Positions 3,967 to 61,206 of a DNA stretch of 64,000 nt are shown here, piece by piece. A model generated the notes under the pieces. It was not told the origin of the DNA, did no database searches, and worked only from the letters and a program-made list of their open reading frames with translations. A program made the position numbers and the translations under genes. This stretch comes from Acidobacteriota bacterium (lineage in GTDB: Bacteria; Acidobacteriota; UBA890; WLXD01): assembly GCA_965205505.1 (NCBI GenBank), contig CBDBHB010000009.1, positions 1,824,001 through 1,888,000 on the forward strand, read 5' to 3'. Each line of letters opens with the position of its first letter. The first letter of the stretch is position 1.

Positions 3967-5550
3967 ATGTCAGAACAAGCTACTTCAACGTATTGTGCCG
4001 ACGGTGAGAGCCTCACATCACTGGCAGAACAACCCAAACAACTAAAATATTGCGTGAATGGTGAGTGGCTTACATCCAGCACTGAGACTTATATGGACTG
4101 CTACAACCCATCCACGGGCGAGATCATTGCTCAGGCTCCACAATGCACAGCAGAAGAAGTGAACTCAGCAGTCGCAGCAGCCAAGGCCGCTTATCCGGGA
4201 TGGTCTAATACCCCTGTGGTGCGACGTGTTCAGATCTTGTTCAAACTCAAGACACTACTCGAACAACATCTGGATGGGTTGACTGAGATACTCGCCCGAG
4301 AAATGGGAAAGGCTTGGGAAGAAGCAAAGGGAGACATCTTAAAAGTAATTGAAGTCGTCGACTTTTCCTGTGGTATGCCGCATCTCATGAAAGGGGAATC
4401 CCTGATGGATTGCAGCACGGATTATGATACGACTATGTATCATCATCCAGTTGGTGTTTTTGCTGGAATCGCCCCCTGGAATTTTCCCGCAATGATCCCC
4501 CAGGGTTGGATGGCTCCGATTTGTATCGCCGCGGGAAATTGTTTCGTACTGAAAGCCGCTAGCTTTGTTCCTCAAACATCAATGCGAATCACGGAACTAT
4601 GGTATGAGGCCGGGCTCCCCAAAGGCGTTTTGAACGTAGTAACCACCAGCCGGAATGAAGCGGAACTGCTACTCGAGCATCCTGATATCGCTGGTGTTAC
4701 TTTTGTGGGCTCAACCAAAGTCGGCCAGCATATTTACTCGACCGCCGCCGCGAATGGCAAACGGGTTCAAGCTCTGACTGAAGCCAAGAACCACGCCCTG
4801 GTCTTGGAAGACTGTGTCCTGGAAAGGACAGCCAGGGGAATTGTCAACGCGTTCTGCGGGTGTGCCGGCCAACGGTGCATGGCGCTTCCGGTTGTTTGTG
4901 TTGAAGAGAGTATTGCCGACAGGTTGGTTGAATCTCTGGTGCGACTCTCCTCCGAATTAACATTGGGACCGGCCTATGAACGAAGCACTGGCGTTGGACC
5001 GGTAGTGAACAAGGGCCATTTGAAATACGTCACTGATTGGATTCAAACGGGTGTTGACGAAGGGGCTACACTCGTTCTTGATGGCCGCAACCCTGACGTG
5101 CCGGGTTATGACAGTGGCTTTTATGTTGGACCAACCATCTTTGATCACGTGACCGAAGATATGACGGTTGGGCGGGATGAAGTCTTCGGGCCTGTTATCT
5201 GCGTAAAACGCATCCAAGACTTTGAAGAAGGCCTGGCCATTATGAACAACAGTGAGTTTGCCAATGGTTCGTCGATCTATACTCAAAGCGGCTATTACGC
5301 CCGTGAGTTTTCCAAACGAACTCATGGTGGCATGGTTGGTGTGAACGTTGGTATTCCAGTCCCTCTGGGAATCTTTGGTTTCACCGGACAGAAGAAATCA
5401 TTCTTTGGTGATTTACATACCATGGGAAAGGACGGTGTGAGGTTCTTTACCGAACTAAAGTGTGTCACCACTACCTGGTTTACGGAAGACATGGGATCGG
5501 ACAAGGTCAATACCTGGGACGGAACCATCGATGTTGGGTCGAACGACTGA
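3967..5550 (+). CDS. mmsA: CoA-acylating (methyl)malonate-semialdehyde dehydrogenase, intact, lower GC than its surroundings
   Basis: IAPWNFPAMIP, FVGSTKVG, EAKNH, catalytic GCAGQRCMA, EVFGPV and GMVGVNVGIPVP motifs; many A/T-ending codons. Confidence 0.93.
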   Translation: MSEQATSTYCADGESLTSLAEQPKQLKYCVNGEWLTSSTETYMDCYNPSTGEIIAQAPQCTAEEVNSAVAAAKAAYPGWSNTPVVRRVQILFKLKTLLEQHLDGLTEILAREMGKAWEEAKGDILKVIEVVDFSCGMPHLMKGESLMDCSTDYDTTMYHHPVGVFAGIAPWNFPAMIPQGWMAPICIAAGNCFVLKAASFVPQTSMRITELWYEAGLPKGVLNVVTTSRNEAELLLEHPDIAGVTFVGSTKVGQHIYSTAAANGKRVQALTEAKNHALVLEDCVLERTARGIVNAFCGCAGQRCMALPVVCVEESIADRLVESLVRLSSELTLGPAYERSTGVGPVVNKGHLKYVTDWIQTGVDEGATLVLDGRNPDVPGYDSGFYVGPTIFDHVTEDMTVGRDEVFGPVICVKRIQDFEEGLAIMNNSEFANGSSIYTQSGYYAREFSKRTHGGMVGVNVGIPVPLGIFGFTGQKKSFFGDLHTMGKDGVRFFTELKCVTTTWFTEDMGSDKVNTWDGTIDVGSND

Positions 5551-5699
5551 GCTCCTAATATTTGGCGTTTGTCAGGTAATCTCGTTTCGTTGACGTTTCA
5601 TACATGCTGCAGCAGCAATACGACCGGCAGGTTTGACGCTGCGCGGTACGTGAGGACGGATCGGTAGAGCCCTCAGCTGCATGGGTATCTCTTTCTACG

Positions 5700-6292
5700 G
5701 TCCTCTCGAGGAGGGAGCTTCCATCGTCACGGACGGCCGCGGCCTGAGTGTTCCGGGTTGCGAAGGAGGCTTGTTCGTCGGCCCGACATTGTTCGATCAC
5801 GTCAAGCCTCCGATGCGAATCTATCGCGAGGAGATCTTCGGCCCAGTGCTGGCGATTGGGGCCATTTGCGGCGTTGGCCTTCCTCGACGATGGCTAGGGC
5901 ATCGCCAGTGTCAGGCCGCCTTGCATCTGGCCCCAACTCGCCGTAACCAGACCCACCACACTTTCACCACGGCCTGCTAGCACTTCACCGATGCCATCGA
6001 GCTGGTCAACAACAACGAATTCGCAAACGGAACCGCGATCTTCACGAACGATGGCGGCGCTGCCTGGCGCTTTCAGCAAGAGATTCAGGTGGGTATGGTG
6101 GGCATCAACGTGCCGATACCCGTACCGATGGCCTATCACTCGTTCGGTGGGTAGAAGAGCTCGCTGTTCGGCGCGTGTTCGATCTACGGTCCAGAAGGTG
6201 TGCACTTCTACACGCGACCGAAGGTCGTGACGACCCGCTGGGCCGACTCGTCTCAGCGCGGCGTCGATCTGGGCTTCCCACGCTCGCACTAG
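5700..6292 (+). pseudogene. mmsA: C-terminal fragment of the high-GC mmsA, interrupted by a half-MITE and an in-frame TAG
   Basis: [11 protein letters not shown]...[28 protein letters not shown], then the repeat at 5851-5980, then [22 protein letters not shown]...[26 protein letters not shown]...FYTRPKVVTTRW. Confidence 0.88.
5851..5980. repeat. Family-A MITE, half copy (one hairpin module plus one terminal repeat ending CTAG)
   Basis: Near-identical to the reverse complement of 9200-9330; ends CCAGACCCACCACACTTTCACCACGGCCTGCTAG. Confidence 0.9.
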
Positions 6293-6389
6293 ATGAGATG
6301 AGAAGGCCAACCTCCTGAACGCAGTAGCCTGACGGCTCTGCAAACGTTTCTTCAAACGTAACGGGCTCGAAGCCCAAGGAGGTTGGCCG

Positions 6390-7436
6390 ATGACAAGTGT
6401 AACGATTGGACTGGACGTAAGCGACCGGTACAGCCGTATGTGCGTGCTCGACAGTAAGGGCAGGGTGATGGAGGAAGGGCGGGTGAGGACGAGCCCGGAG
6501 GGGCTGGCGAGGCGGTTCGGGTGCGAGGAGCCCGCTCGAGTAGTGCTGGAGGTTGGAACGCACTCGCCGTGGATGAGTGAGCAGTTGAAGCAACTGGGTC
6601 ATGAGGTGCTGGTGGCTAACCCGAGGCGGCTGAAGCTGATCTATGGCGAGCACGACAAGACCGACCGGTTGGATGCCGAGCACCTGGCACGAGTGGGCAG
6701 AATGGACCCAAAGCTGCTTAAGACGGTGCAGCATCGAGGCAGACAAGCGCGAGCGGATCTAGCCGTGATTCGGAGCCGAGATGCTCTGGTAAAGAGCCGC
6801 ACGCAGTTGGTGAGCCATGTGCGTGGTGCGGTCAAGTCGGCCGGTTGTCGTATTCCCAGGTGCTCGACGCCGGCGTTCGCGCGCACCGCGCCAGAGCACA
6901 TACCGGAGCGGCTCAAGGGAGCGCTCGAGCCGGTGCTTGAAACGATCGCCATGCTGACGGGCAACATCCAGCAATACGAGCGTCAGATCGCGCAGCTGTG
7001 CCAGGGGCGATACCCGGAGACACAGCAGCTCCAGCAAGTGGCCGGGGTCGGAGCTCTGACCGCACTGGCGTATGTGCTGACGCTCGAGGAGCCGGAACGG
7101 TTCAATACCTCCAGAGCCGTGGGCCCGTACCTGGGACTGAGACCGAAGAAACGGCAGTCGGGGGACAAGGACCCTGCGCTACGAATAACCAAGGCGGGCG
7201 ACAAAATGCTCCGACGCCTGTTGGTGGGCTCGGCGCATTACATCCTGGGCCCCTTCGGGCCCGATACTGAGCTCAGACGCTGGGGGCTCAAGCTGGCCGG
7301 ACGCGGTGGTCCTCATGGCAACAAAAAGGCAGCAGTTGCTGTCGCCCGTAAGCTCGCCGTTGTGCTGCACCGACTGTGGCTGAGTGGAGACGAGTACGAA
7401 CCGTTGCGCGCACCTGTAGAGGTTTCAGCAGCATGA
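6390..7436 (+). CDS. IS110-family DEDD transposase/recombinase
   Basis: IGLDVS, VLEVG, KTDRLDA (RuvC-like DEDD), GVGALTA, and GLRPKKRQSG carrying the conserved Ser; ends AVARKL. Confidence 0.96.
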   Translation: MTSVTIGLDVSDRYSRMCVLDSKGRVMEEGRVRTSPEGLARRFGCEEPARVVLEVGTHSPWMSEQLKQLGHEVLVANPRRLKLIYGEHDKTDRLDAEHLARVGRMDPKLLKTVQHRGRQARADLAVIRSRDALVKSRTQLVSHVRGAVKSAGCRIPRCSTPAFARTAPEHIPERLKGALEPVLETIAMLTGNIQQYERQIAQLCQGRYPETQQLQQVAGVGALTALAYVLTLEEPERFNTSRAVGPYLGLRPKKRQSGDKDPALRITKAGDKMLRRLLVGSAHYILGPFGPDTELRRWGLKLAGRGGPHGNKKAAVAVARKLAVVLHRLWLSGDEYEPLRAPVEVSAA

Positions 7437-7682
7437 ACTAACCCGCAACCAGGAGGTCGGTAGGGCGACGCGACCCAACGGTTATCGATCTGACCGCCCG
7501 GTCCGGGCGACTGCGAAGGTCACTACGAGCTTCGAGCTCGGCAGCTAGATTGCAGCGCCTCGAATCGGGACGGACCCCAGAATGCACCGGACGACCTGAA
7601 TCCTCGTCCACCAGAGTGCGAATAGGAGCATGGCGTGCAGATCGATTCTTCGCTGGGCACCACATTGCCCTTGACCGAACTA
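7437..7682 (+). ncRNA. Putative bridge RNA / seekRNA in the 3' non-coding region of the IS1111 element
   Basis: Stem CTGCGA/TTGCAG encloses AGGTCACTA, hairpin CGAGCT-TCG-AGCTCG, and GCAGCTAG (7511-7555); these segments match the insertion site. Transcript ends are unknown. Confidence 0.72.
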
Positions 7683-7696
7683 GGCCTTCTCATAGA

Positions 7697-8000
7697 AGTG
7701 GCCTGTAACAGATGATCGTTGCATATCGCAGATGGGATTTGCGGGCGCCTTGGATCTGCGCCCTTGGCGACGTAACCAGACCCATCACACTTCCATCACG
7801 GCCTGCTGGACATCGTCCAGGAGCCGCAACGCCGATATCGCCCGCAACTGCCCATCTGTCCGGAGGATGGGGGCGAACTGGGCCCGTCTGCGGCGTTGCT
7901 CCTCCTCCAAGATGGGCAAACATCGTCTCGTCGGAGCGCCTGACATCCGGGCCCATTTCGCCACCACGATAGGCAACGATCATCTGTTACAGGCCACTAG
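7697..8000. mobile_element. Family-B MITE with 32-bp terminal inverted repeats; contains a degenerate family-A fragment (about 7745-7809)
   Basis: AGTGGCCTGTAACAGATGATCGTTGCATATCG (7697-7728) versus CGATAGGCAACGATCATCTGTTACAGGCCACT (7967-7998), one mismatch; ends in CTAG; no credible ORF. Confidence 0.88.
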
Positions 8001-9199: not shown

Positions 9200-9474
9200 C
9201 TAGCAGGCCGTGGTGAAAGTGTGGTGGGTCTGGTTACGGCGAGTTGGGGCCAGATGCAAGGCGGCCTGACACTGGCGATGACCTAGCCATCGTCGAGGAA
9301 GGCCAACGCCGCAAATGGCCCCAAATCGCCGTAACCCTTCGGGCGACAGGGGGTTGCGCGCGTATGCTGCGTCGTTCCTCGTCAACGATGGGGTACCCAT
9401 CGCCTCCTCCTCTCTCCTTGCCTGCACTTCGCAAGTCCCTGTCGCCAGACCCACCACACTTTCACCACGGCCTG

Positions 9475-60358: not shown

Positions 60359-60366
60359 TCAGGCCA

Positions 60367-61206
60367 CTAGATGGTTACCCCGAAGCGTCCCTTTAGGGCG
60401 AAGGCGAGGGCAATCGTCAAGATGAAGAAAACGATCAGCCAGTCGGTCTCGAAGCCGAGAACACCGACAGCACGCGTCGGGTAGATAACCTCGATCTCGA
60501 TGATAGCCCCGTCGCGGGGTAGGGAAGGCTCGGCCGGGTACAGCAGCGAATTCAAGAACCCAGGCTTGAGCCTATAGGGCGATCGACGCACGACAGCGTC
60601 GGACACCACGATCCGCTTGGTGACGCGTTGGCCGGCGGCTTCGATCTGTACCTCGAAGTTACCTGGGCTGTCGGCCACGATCCGCCAGGCGAGCTGATTT
60701 CGCGCCGGTATCCAGACGCGCGGGCTGTCGAGCCGTAGACCGGCGGGCAAGCTCACGGCGGACTCTGGAGCGGTGCTGGTGGCTAGTCCGTCATCGAGGC
60801 TCACCTGCAGAACGGTCTGCTCGCCAACCGTGAGGCCCCGATACGCGTAGTGGAATTGCAGCTGGGCAATGACCAAGACGAACGGCACTATCATGAACAC
60901 CATCGGCACCAGGTTCAGGCCGAGATAGGTCATGTTGTCGCGCAGGATGCCGCCCTGAGCACGCAGGATCGCCACGATGTCGTCGTTGAACAGGCGGATC
61001 TCGAACAGGCCGGCGGCGATCTTGCGCTTGACGCGCTCAATCGCCGGCTGGTTGGAGGTGGCGCGGTATCCGAGCAACATCAGCACCGAGCAGCCCAGCG
61101 ACACTATCGTCAGCCCGACCATCGGGTGTAGCTGCCGAAAGGGCAACAGCATCAGGTCGAATAGGGGGCGCAATAGCCCGTTCACAGCGCCGAGAATGGC
61201 GTTCAT
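60367..61206 (-). CDS. Membrane protein with DUF106/EMC3-like architecture
   Basis: Amphipathic N-helix, TM1, helical hairpin, TM2 (PMVFMIVP), soluble beta domain, C-terminal TM (DWLIVFFIL). Family assignment is an inference. Confidence 0.65.
   Translation of the reverse strand: MNAILGAVNGLLRPLFDLMLLPFRQLHPMVGLTIVSLGCSVLMLLGYRATSNQPAIERVKRKIAAGLFEIRLFNDDIVAILRAQGGILRDNMTYLGLNLVPMVFMIVPFVLVIAQLQFHYAYRGLTVGEQTVLQVSLDDGLATSTAPESAVSLPAGLRLDSPRVWIPARNQLAWRIVADSPGNFEVQIEAAGQRVTKRIVVSDAVVRRSPYRLKPGFLNSLLYPAEPSLPRDGAIIEIEVIYPTRAVGVLGFETDWLIVFFILTIALAFALKGRFGVTI

Follow-up and report, generated by a model that had tools for sequence, protein, structure and literature searches.

A very probable guide-RNA gene downstream of the transposase gene of an IS1111-type insertion sequence at the tips of a miniature transposable element

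The insertion sequence and its target sites

The window analyzed in this study is a 64-kb stretch of the genome of an Acidobacteriota bacterium (contig CBDBHB010000009.1, positions 1,824,001 to 1,888,000 of the forward strand), and all coordinates given here are positions in this window. An IS1111-type insertion sequence (IS) lies on the plus strand at 6293-7698, with a length of 1406 base pairs (bp) that includes one copy of an AG core dinucleotide and with bounds taken from the comparison of occupied and empty sites. It carries a transposase gene and sits at one end of a miniature inverted-repeat transposable element (MITE). The subject of this work is the non-coding region that follows the transposase gene, where a sequence-only reading of the window had proposed a guide RNA directed at the MITE end. 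All coordinates and strings of that reading were present in the sequence as it had given them.

The gene at 6390-7436 (plus strand) encodes a DEDD transposase/recombinase of 348 amino acids, with Pfam matches to PF01548 (64.7 bits) and PF02371 (62.4 bits) and a match to the NCBIfam model NF033542, 'IS110 family RNA-guided transposase', at 206.9 bits (cut-off 140). In an alignment of 15 homologs, residues D9, E54, D92, D95 and the pair S257-G258 were invariant. The GL-P----S(T)G motif was found in the C-terminal domain, where the protein reads ...YLGLRPKKRQSGDKD...; in the same alignment G249, S257 and G258 of this motif were invariant, and L250 and P252 were kept in at least 90% of the sequences. 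The GL-P----SG motif has been described as a feature of IS1111 transposases (PMC11187229). Compared with an annotated ISKpn4-family transposase, the protein showed 30% identity over residues 6-307, and the structures of IS621 and ISCro4, which belong to the IS110 group, could be aligned only over residues 188-340 (E ~1e-8).

The left end of the IS (6293-6308, plus strand) consists of the extension ATGAG at 6293-6297 and the left subterminal inverted repeat ATGAGAAGGCC at 6298-6308, which is an inverted repeat of 7683-7693. The right end (7683-7698, plus strand) consists of the right subterminal inverted repeat GGCCTTCTCAT at 7683-7693, the extension AGA at 7694-7696 and the core AG at 7697-7698. 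To the left, the IS is flanked by CTAG (6289-6292, plus strand), the target-site duplication of the MITE, whose AG at 6291-6292 is the core dinucleotide in common with 7697-7698. Only this AG is common to both junctions, and the IS thus sits between CTAG and TGGCCTG. With one AG counted in, the extensions are AGATGAG on the left (7 nucleotides, nt) and AGA on the right (3 nt), and the subterminal repeats measure 11 bp, in agreement with the published rule for IS1111 elements, which have subterminal repeats of about 11-13 bp, a left extension of 7 (or 6) nt and a right one of 3 nt (PMC11187229). The non-coding parts of the IS amount to 97 nt upstream of the gene (6293-6389) and 262 nt downstream of it (7437-7698), and the longer one therefore lies 3' of the transposase gene, as the IS1111 group requires. 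By these sequence-level definitions, the element is a member of the IS1111 group.

The genome contains 27 full copies of the IS, with identities of 98.7-100%, in addition to truncated copies. All 27 full copies occupy a single target in a single orientation, CTAG|TG(G/A)CCT with the right end facing TGGCCT, and there is no real target duplication. The target logo of the 27 copies reads C25 T26 A27 G27 on the left and T27 G27 G26 C27 C27 T27 on the right, followed by G23 and then by a decay towards background. The 262-nt non-coding region varied among the 27 copies at 18 sites, all of them outside positions 7506-7559, which were invariant. The RNA region was found in this genome only within full or truncated IS copies. 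Among the individual copies, the one at C9:2702239 has three ATGAG units at its left end where other copies have two, which looks like slippage in the terminal extension. In the copy at C8:891219-892374, IS positions 699-1059 are replaced by about 115 bp, with loss of the middle of the transposase gene and retention of the whole RNA region; three more copies are truncated on the 5' side and retain the RNA region.

The MITE next to the IS in the window spans 7699-7996 (298 bp), has terminal inverted repeats TGGCCTGTAACAGATGATCG... and lies between CTAG sequences. The IS has used the left tip of this MITE as its target; the right tip, at 7990-8000, is an unoccupied target and reads CTAGTGGCCTG as the reverse complement. 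A genome-wide count gave 94 occurrences of CTAGTGGCCTG, where 4.3 would be expected, and 60 of them run on as the MITE repeat CTAGTGGCCTGTAACAG. The IS occupies 18 ends of this main repeat type, with another 65 being empty, and 6 of 8 ends of a second repeat type (TGGCCTGAGTCAG). With both types taken together, 24 of 31 right junctions adjoin a MITE terminal repeat, which bears out the proposal of the sequence-only reading that the element is aimed at a MITE terminus. There are 26 adjacent inverted pairs of the MITE repeat in the genome, mostly 250-614 bp apart, and none of these pairs has the size of an autonomous element. The IS probably blocks the MITE ends that it occupies. IS4321/IS5075, an IS1111 relative, reportedly targets the terminal repeats of other transposons, and the present element would resemble it as an IS1111-family element that targets the terminal repeat of another mobile element, with a MITE of 250-600 bp as its prey. 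Elsewhere in the window, far from the IS, 60361-60369 is another AGGCCACTA (the target on the other strand), and no main-type MITE repeat is present there.

Predicted target guides in the window element and its relatives

The non-coding region of the window element contains two short segments that match the two strands of the target. The first, which pairs with the top strand (T guide), is AGGUCACUA at 7517-7525 (plus strand; DNA AGGTCACTA) and does not vary among the 27 copies. Its partner is top-strand TAGTGGCCT, which covers position -3, the core AG and right-flank positions +1 to +6 and gives a pairing run of 9 nt. The one difference between this guide and its target, taken for a G:U wobble in the sequence-only reading, is indeed U7520 opposite G (G·U) at 26 of the 27 sites, and the remaining site has A and is a perfect match. 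The second segment (B guide) is GCAGCUAG at 7541-7548 (plus strand; DNA GCAGCTAG) and comprises 6 nt and the core. Its proposed match to the opposite strand through CTAG was confirmed, but its agreement with the left-flank consensus is limited to CUAG. No partner is evident for the GCAG part of the B guide, the 27 copies show no clear preference in their left flanks at -8 to -5, and no target fitting both guides in full was found in the genome with three patterns extended by 1-3 nt to the left of GCTAG (0 matches each). The T guide and the B-guide match at 7545-7548 overlap on TAG, with the top-strand match first, and together the two guide matches cover exactly the strongly conserved span of the 27-copy target logo, -4 to +6. 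On both strands of the window, AGGYCACTA occurs 3 times against 0.27 expected, with one occurrence being the guide and another the other MITE end (7991-7999).

Related elements were collected from genomes and metagenomes. A phylum-wide genome search gave matches in 26 of 401 genomes at E 1e-40 or better; this tally includes one genome (G152) whose locus (L036) had no parsable ends and which was used in no further claim. A single-protein search of genome contigs found only one relative (L031), and a search of metagenome contigs with a 15-protein alignment gave 80 loci. Both IS ends were parsed in 19 of the 31 genome loci and in 50 of the 80 metagenome loci, which, minus three duplicate copies (L058, L059 and L061) excluded from all counts, left 66 non-redundant elements. 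At 43-63% protein identity, these relatives have one RNA scaffold with variable loop strands, and the 66 elements share the subterminal repeat, the extensions and the AG core (AA in L045 and GG in L104). The guide segments were located with regular-expression anchors. Elements L084 and L107, without the 3' anchor, and L139, without the 5' anchor, were left out of the target-guide test, and 8 more elements with short flanks were dropped from the remaining 63, so that the test comprised 55 elements with both anchors and usable flanks, in 39 target groups.

The longest pairing run between the T guide and its own target had a median of 9, compared with 4 for non-cognate targets. For the B guide, scored over the 6 nt before the core in a fixed register, the cognate median was 5/6 and the non-cognate median 1/6. 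The sequence-only reading had named covariation of homologous non-coding regions with their targets as a check on the two target-loop strands at 7517-7525 and 7541-7548; for each guide, 0 of 100,000 permutations reached the observed sum, and across the 39 target groups both strands covary with their own flanks. The guide segments thus change with the target, and the two core variants are tracked as well: in L045 (AA), the first strand carries UU, the second carries AA and the downstream heptamer is AUAGAAA, and the corresponding sequences of L104 (GG) are CC, GG and AUAGAGG. The window element itself scored a run of 9 with one wobble for the T guide and 2/6 for the B guide, and a B guide this weak would be understandable with an arbitrary left flank outside the MITE. 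When the homolog strings were inspected by eye, no consistent handshake-guide-like match to the right end was found after the T guide.

The two nucleotides that follow the B guide and core (7549-7550 in the window) are AU in most elements and GU in 8. AU is also the first two bases of the IS left end, so that the strand matches the left IS-flank junction 2 nt beyond the empty target; the AU may simply belong to the stem.

Stems and scaffold of the RNA region

The two target guides lie in a loop that is enclosed by an outer stem. The 5' strand of this stem, 7505-7516 (plus strand), reads GGGCG-A-CUGCGA and pairs with 7550-7560; at 7506-7516 it is GGCGACTGCGA as DNA and GGCGACUGCGA as RNA. The 3' strand, 7550-7560 (plus strand), reads UUGCAG-CGCCU and is TTGCAGCGCC as DNA and UUGCAGCGCC as RNA at 7550-7559. 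An inner hairpin at 7526-7540 (plus strand; CGAGCU-UCG-AGCUCG), predicted by folding and of variable length among homologs, closes the loop. Both the outer stem and the inner hairpin are present in the minimum-free-energy folds. These folds also place a basal helix around the region, with its 5' strand at 7459-7503 (plus strand) paired with about 7629-7673. Relative to shuffled sequences, the z-scores of the folds were -1.98 for 7437-7700, -1.99 for 7503-7561 and -0.55 for 7570-7630. Because single-sequence folding is this modest, the significance of the structure rests on the comparison with related elements.

In an alignment of 39 homologs, 11 of 17 stem pairs had changed on both sides, 81.2% of the stem cells were paired as opposed to 33-50% when the partners were slid, and 0 of 500 shuffles reached the observed values. 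The outer stem (helix 1 of alignment A2) contributed 8 of 11 pairs changed on both sides, with 87.9% of its cells paired, and the inner hairpin (helix 2 of the same alignment) contributed 3 of 6. For the basal helix, duplexes between the upstream and downstream 45 nt of 38 elements had a cognate mean of -31.2 kcal/mol compared with a non-cognate mean of -22.2, and 0 of 20,000 permutations did as well. This element-specific pairing of the 45-nt arms indicates that the structured RNA spans about 7459-7673. The common scaffold reads, in its 5' part, GGGCGACUGCG, a variable strand, a hairpin of variable length, CG with 6 variable nucleotides and the core, and AU(U/G)GCAGCGCC; in its 3' part, it reads GGACCCCA..AUGCACC, a hairpin, AGAGUGCG(N)AU(A/G)GAAG ... 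CUUGAC and the subterminal repeat. Altogether, the family features of the IS and the covariation of guides and stems uphold the earlier proposal of an IS110/IS1111-family element with a guide RNA in its 3' non-coding region.

The similarity between the non-coding region and the target might instead act as DNA, in the manner of an attachment-site-like core, with no RNA involved. No RNA has been demonstrated here, and the contigs from RNA libraries described below may be DNA, both of which this explanation can claim for itself. We nevertheless regard it as highly improbable, since the two matches are split, stand on opposite strands and lie in an internal loop between covarying helices. The helices also contain G·U pairs, in 20 sequences at alignment columns 13:81 and in 9 sequences at columns 27:68, which fit transcription of the plus strand, that is, the transposase strand, and which would be A·C on the other strand. 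Additionally, relatives have been shown to co-purify with RNA of this region and to depend on it (PMC11187229).

A second explanation would reduce the guide matches to chance and the region to a plain structured 3' untranslated region or a terminator. It agrees with the modest fold z-scores, with the two informative nucleotides of the B guide and with the Rfam 15 search, in which no bridge-RNA or seekRNA family was matched and two lncRNA models matched at chance level (E 4.8 and 6.9). A 9-nt match, on the other hand, is expected only about 0.0005 times on one strand of the 260-nt region, no terminator-like site was found on the plus strand of the RNA region, and the covariation of guides and stems contradicts this explanation, which we consider extremely improbable.

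Putative donor module

Downstream of the target loop and within the basal helix, a second stem-loop is predicted by folding at 7583-7620 (plus strand), with UGCAC (7583-7587) and GUGCG (7616-7620) around GGACGA (7589-7594) and UCGUCC (7604-7609). Its GCAC/GUGC stem is conserved in all 37 sequences, among which 1 compensatory change was seen, and the alignment fold recovered only this 4-bp stem. The inner hairpin of this module is variable and was left unaligned by MAFFT, and no covariation count was therefore obtained for it.

The segment that follows this stem-loop, AUAGGAG at 7622-7628 (plus strand), is the putative right donor guide. It equals the right end AUAGA and the core AG with one G for A, which would be a G·T wobble to the bottom strand. 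Throughout the family, the heptamer after GUGCG(N) equals the last five IS bases and the core. The third letter of the heptamer, A in 12 elements and G in 54, is the one given by the right end, CAT(A/G)GA, in 66 of 66 cases; its last two letters track the core in L045 (AA) and L104 (GG), and the right end and the right guide each change 6 times on the transposase tree. The sequence-only reading, which had noticed the resemblance of ATAGGAG to the predicted circle junction, was thus correct about a position that follows the right end and the core. Genome G112 has one IS in two copies, L033 and L059, whose right extensions differ (GGA and AGA, respectively); the heptamer of L033 is AUGGAAG.

The left donor guide had been left without a confident assignment in the sequence-only reading, and it proved hard to assign in our analysis as well. 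By homology, the candidate is CCCCA at 7575-7579 (plus strand), which would pair with positions 2-5 of the left extension with a C·A mismatch to ATGAG. Among the relatives, the corresponding segment is CCCA in 26 of 31 elements with ATGGG and CUCA in 9 of 13 elements with ATGAG; further forms are CCUUA with ATAAGG and CUCAA with ATTGAG. The window element, L068 and L075 are exceptions that carry CCCA with ATGAG and hence the C·A mismatch. The left donor segment ends short of the core. Separately, metagenome locus L139 has a 210-nt non-coding region with a donor-type module (…GCAUGCACG…CAGUGCGGAUGGAAGC), and no GACUGCG target module was found in it.

These observations bear on the possibility that only the target module works, as a short seekRNA, and that the matches at 7575-7579 and 7622-7628 reflect constraints at the DNA level, such as an internal recombinase-binding site that resembles the end, or shared descent, instead of donor pairing. 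In the published assay, an 82-nt seekRNA of ISEc11 sufficed and even worked more efficiently (PMC11187229), the left donor segment of the window element is mismatched and off the core, and the independent-pairs tests given below are underpowered. The tracking of the right end by the right segment in 66 of 66 elements, and of the core in both core variants, is difficult to reconcile with this possibility. Moreover, the two segments flank a conserved stem-loop within a covarying basal helix, which is the multiloop arrangement, with guides around a stem-loop, described for many IS1111 orthologues (Durrant et al., PMC11208160). We therefore judge a role for the target module only to be unlikely.

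Predicted junction promoter and contigs from RNA libraries

The sequence TTGACC at 7671-7676 (plus strand), which the sequence-only reading had taken for the -35 box of a junction promoter, is well conserved: 63 of 66 elements have TTGAC, in most cases at a distance of 25-26 nt from the right end. The predicted promoter is completed only in the circle, where the -10 hexamer GAAGAT would be built of the right extension, the core and the left end (GA, AG and AT); the integrated copy in the window reads GAAGTG. After circle formation, GAAGAT would stand at a spacer of 17 or 18 in 56 of the 63 elements with TTGAC. No sigma-70-like promoter was found inside the integrated IS. From these sequences, we infer that TTGACC and GAAGAT form a circle-junction promoter. 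A junction promoter formed only in the circle has been described for the IS1111 family (PMC11187229).

Contigs from metatranscriptome assemblies covered the IS at 6473-7728 and 6982-7691 in two runs of one study, so that the whole non-coding region was covered, and one of the contigs enters the MITE. All four metatranscriptome runs consist of contigs; X18 and X19 gave only short pieces, and the gaps at 6100-6282 and 7747-7868 carry no meaning.

Other repeats near the insertion sequence

A second short repeat family is present in the neighborhood of the IS, at 5860-5985 and, on the minus strand, at 9200-9457. The open reading frames at 5681-5980 (plus strand) and 9200-9457 (minus strand) have the same terminal 39-residue translation. 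This repeat ends in GGCCTGCTAG, a sequence that also flanks 3 of the 27 IS copies on the left, and a stretch related to the repeat lies inside the MITE at about 7740-7810. Just 3' of an intact gene of 527 amino acids (3967-5550), the region 5681-6292 is a broken second copy of the C-terminal part of the aldehyde dehydrogenase. This copy is split by the repeat of about 125 bp (around 5860-5985), carries a TAG in frame at about 6153-6155 and terminates with the TAG of the CTAG used by the MITE and the IS.

Discussion

Positions 7437-7696 are very probably the guide-RNA gene (a seekRNA or bridge RNA) of an active IS1111-type insertion sequence. This analysis shows the anatomy of the element, its copy number and its target logo, and it shows that stems, target guides, core and right-end guide covary among the relatives. 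An RNA guide at this place is an expected feature of a new member of the family and implies no new mechanism. The sequence-only reading had given the finding too much weight in this respect, as publications of 2024 had already demonstrated RNA guides at the 3' end of IS1111 elements by experiment and predicted them for the whole family (PMC11187229; PMC11208160), and the mechanism has since been reviewed and extended (PMC13604230; PMC13626964; bioRxiv 10.1101/2025.10.25.684509).

By analogy with the characterized relatives, the RNA would be made and processed and would bind the recombinase, and its pairing would decide specificity. The IS would leave its site as a circle in which the right and left ends are joined, and the joined ends would complete the promoter with TTGACC, a spacer of 18 nt and GAAGAT. 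Transcription from this promoter would pass through the transposase gene into the 3' non-coding region, which would fold into a basal helix with two modules. In the target module (7505-7560), two single strands would be held in an internal loop, where AGGUCACUA would pair with the top strand of TAGTGGCCT and (GCAG)CUAG with the bottom strand of CTAG, and both guide strands would span the AG core, the site of strand exchange. In the donor module (7572-7628), CCCCA beside the stem-loop would pair with the left extension, and AUAGGAG on the other side would match the right end and the core. The RNA-bound DEDD recombinase would insert the circle between CTAG and TGGCCT, which in this genome would mostly be a MITE tip and its CTAG duplication.

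Several points weigh against this interpretation. The single-sequence fold lies only about 2 standard deviations beyond the shuffles, and the minus strand folds about equally well. The B guide matches 4 nt, of which 2 (CU) are informative since AG is fixed across the family, and CTAG is a palindrome. Three of the four guide segments are imperfect in the window element, with a G·U in the T guide, a G·T in the right donor guide and a C·A mismatch in the left donor guide. Some elements were mis-anchored, namely L104 for the T guide, which was anchored on the first of two GACTGCG motifs and kept in the test as a miss, and L038, L046, L087, L102 and L107 for the left donor guide. With regard to the donor module, the independent-pairs test of the right end has 3 well-supported pairs, which all point the same way (3/3, p = 0.25) and leave it underpowered; the test of the left end against the left guide is weaker still, with 2 pairs, and the donor module may not be required. 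Finally, the contigs from RNA libraries show presence only, with no RNA ends, strand or level, and DNA carry-over is possible.

The closest known systems are the seekRNA elements of the IS1111 group, ISEc11, ISKpn4, ISPst6 and ISPa11 (Siddiquee et al. 2024, PMC11187229). As described there, these have a DEDD transposase with the GL-P----SG motif, 11-bp subterminal repeats with 7- and 3-nt extensions, a long non-coding region after the gene, a top-strand match that lies 5' of the bottom-strand match and overlaps it at the insertion point, and a promoter present only in the circle, all of which are paralleled in the window element, the promoter by prediction. The window element differs from them in its protein, which is only about 30% identical, in its target CTAG|TGGCCT, in a bottom-strand guide of effectively 4 nt and in a natural top-strand G·U at 26 of 27 sites.

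The IS621 bridge RNA of the IS110 group (Durrant et al. 2024, PMC11208160; Hiraizumi et al. 2024; PMC13626964) likewise has target and donor modules and belongs to a system of the same protein family, NF033542, and its guides read both strands around the core dinucleotide (PMC11208160). In contrast to IS621, where the RNA lies at the 5' end of the element, the RNA region here lies at the 3' end and the order of the guides is reversed. The donor segments are arranged in a multiloop around a stem-loop instead of a simple internal loop, the left donor segment stops short of the core, and the core is AG on the transposase strand. A further comparison is offered by ISPpu9 of Pseudomonas putida and its small RNA Ssr9 (PMC12288879), which is also an IS110-family element inserted in a repetitive extragenic sequence and in which a small-RNA gene follows the transposase gene. 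The account of ISPpu9 includes extra stand-alone copies of the RNA, whereas the RNA region of the window element was found only inside full or truncated IS copies.

Within the guide-RNA interpretation, the element is mildly unusual in its near-absent left-flank guide, in the tolerance of wobbles or mismatches in three of four segments and in belonging to a large, uniform clade that provides a ready covariation set. A tentative possibility, doubtful on balance, is that it represents a natural 'half-site' system, in which a 9-nt top-strand guide with a G·U, a palindromic CUAG of 4 nt and mismatched donor guides have nonetheless sustained about 30 copies. If this were true, the IS would be a dedicated parasite of MITE tips that is indifferent to the sequence outside the MITE. 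The clade, with one scaffold, at least 39 natural targets and AA and GG cores, would then yield covariation rules for a two-module IS1111 RNA that has donor guides in a multiloop, the left one skipping the core.

The locus offers a clean natural case of RNA-guided insertion for which a single genome supplies the controls, given 27 near-identical copies, a target logo bounded by the guides and 65 empty targets. Additionally, the relatives, with one scaffold and 39 targets, are material for design rules of IS1111 guides, including guide lengths, wobble tolerance and the core changes to AA and GG. The finding is also a case of one mobile element that lives on the tips of another.

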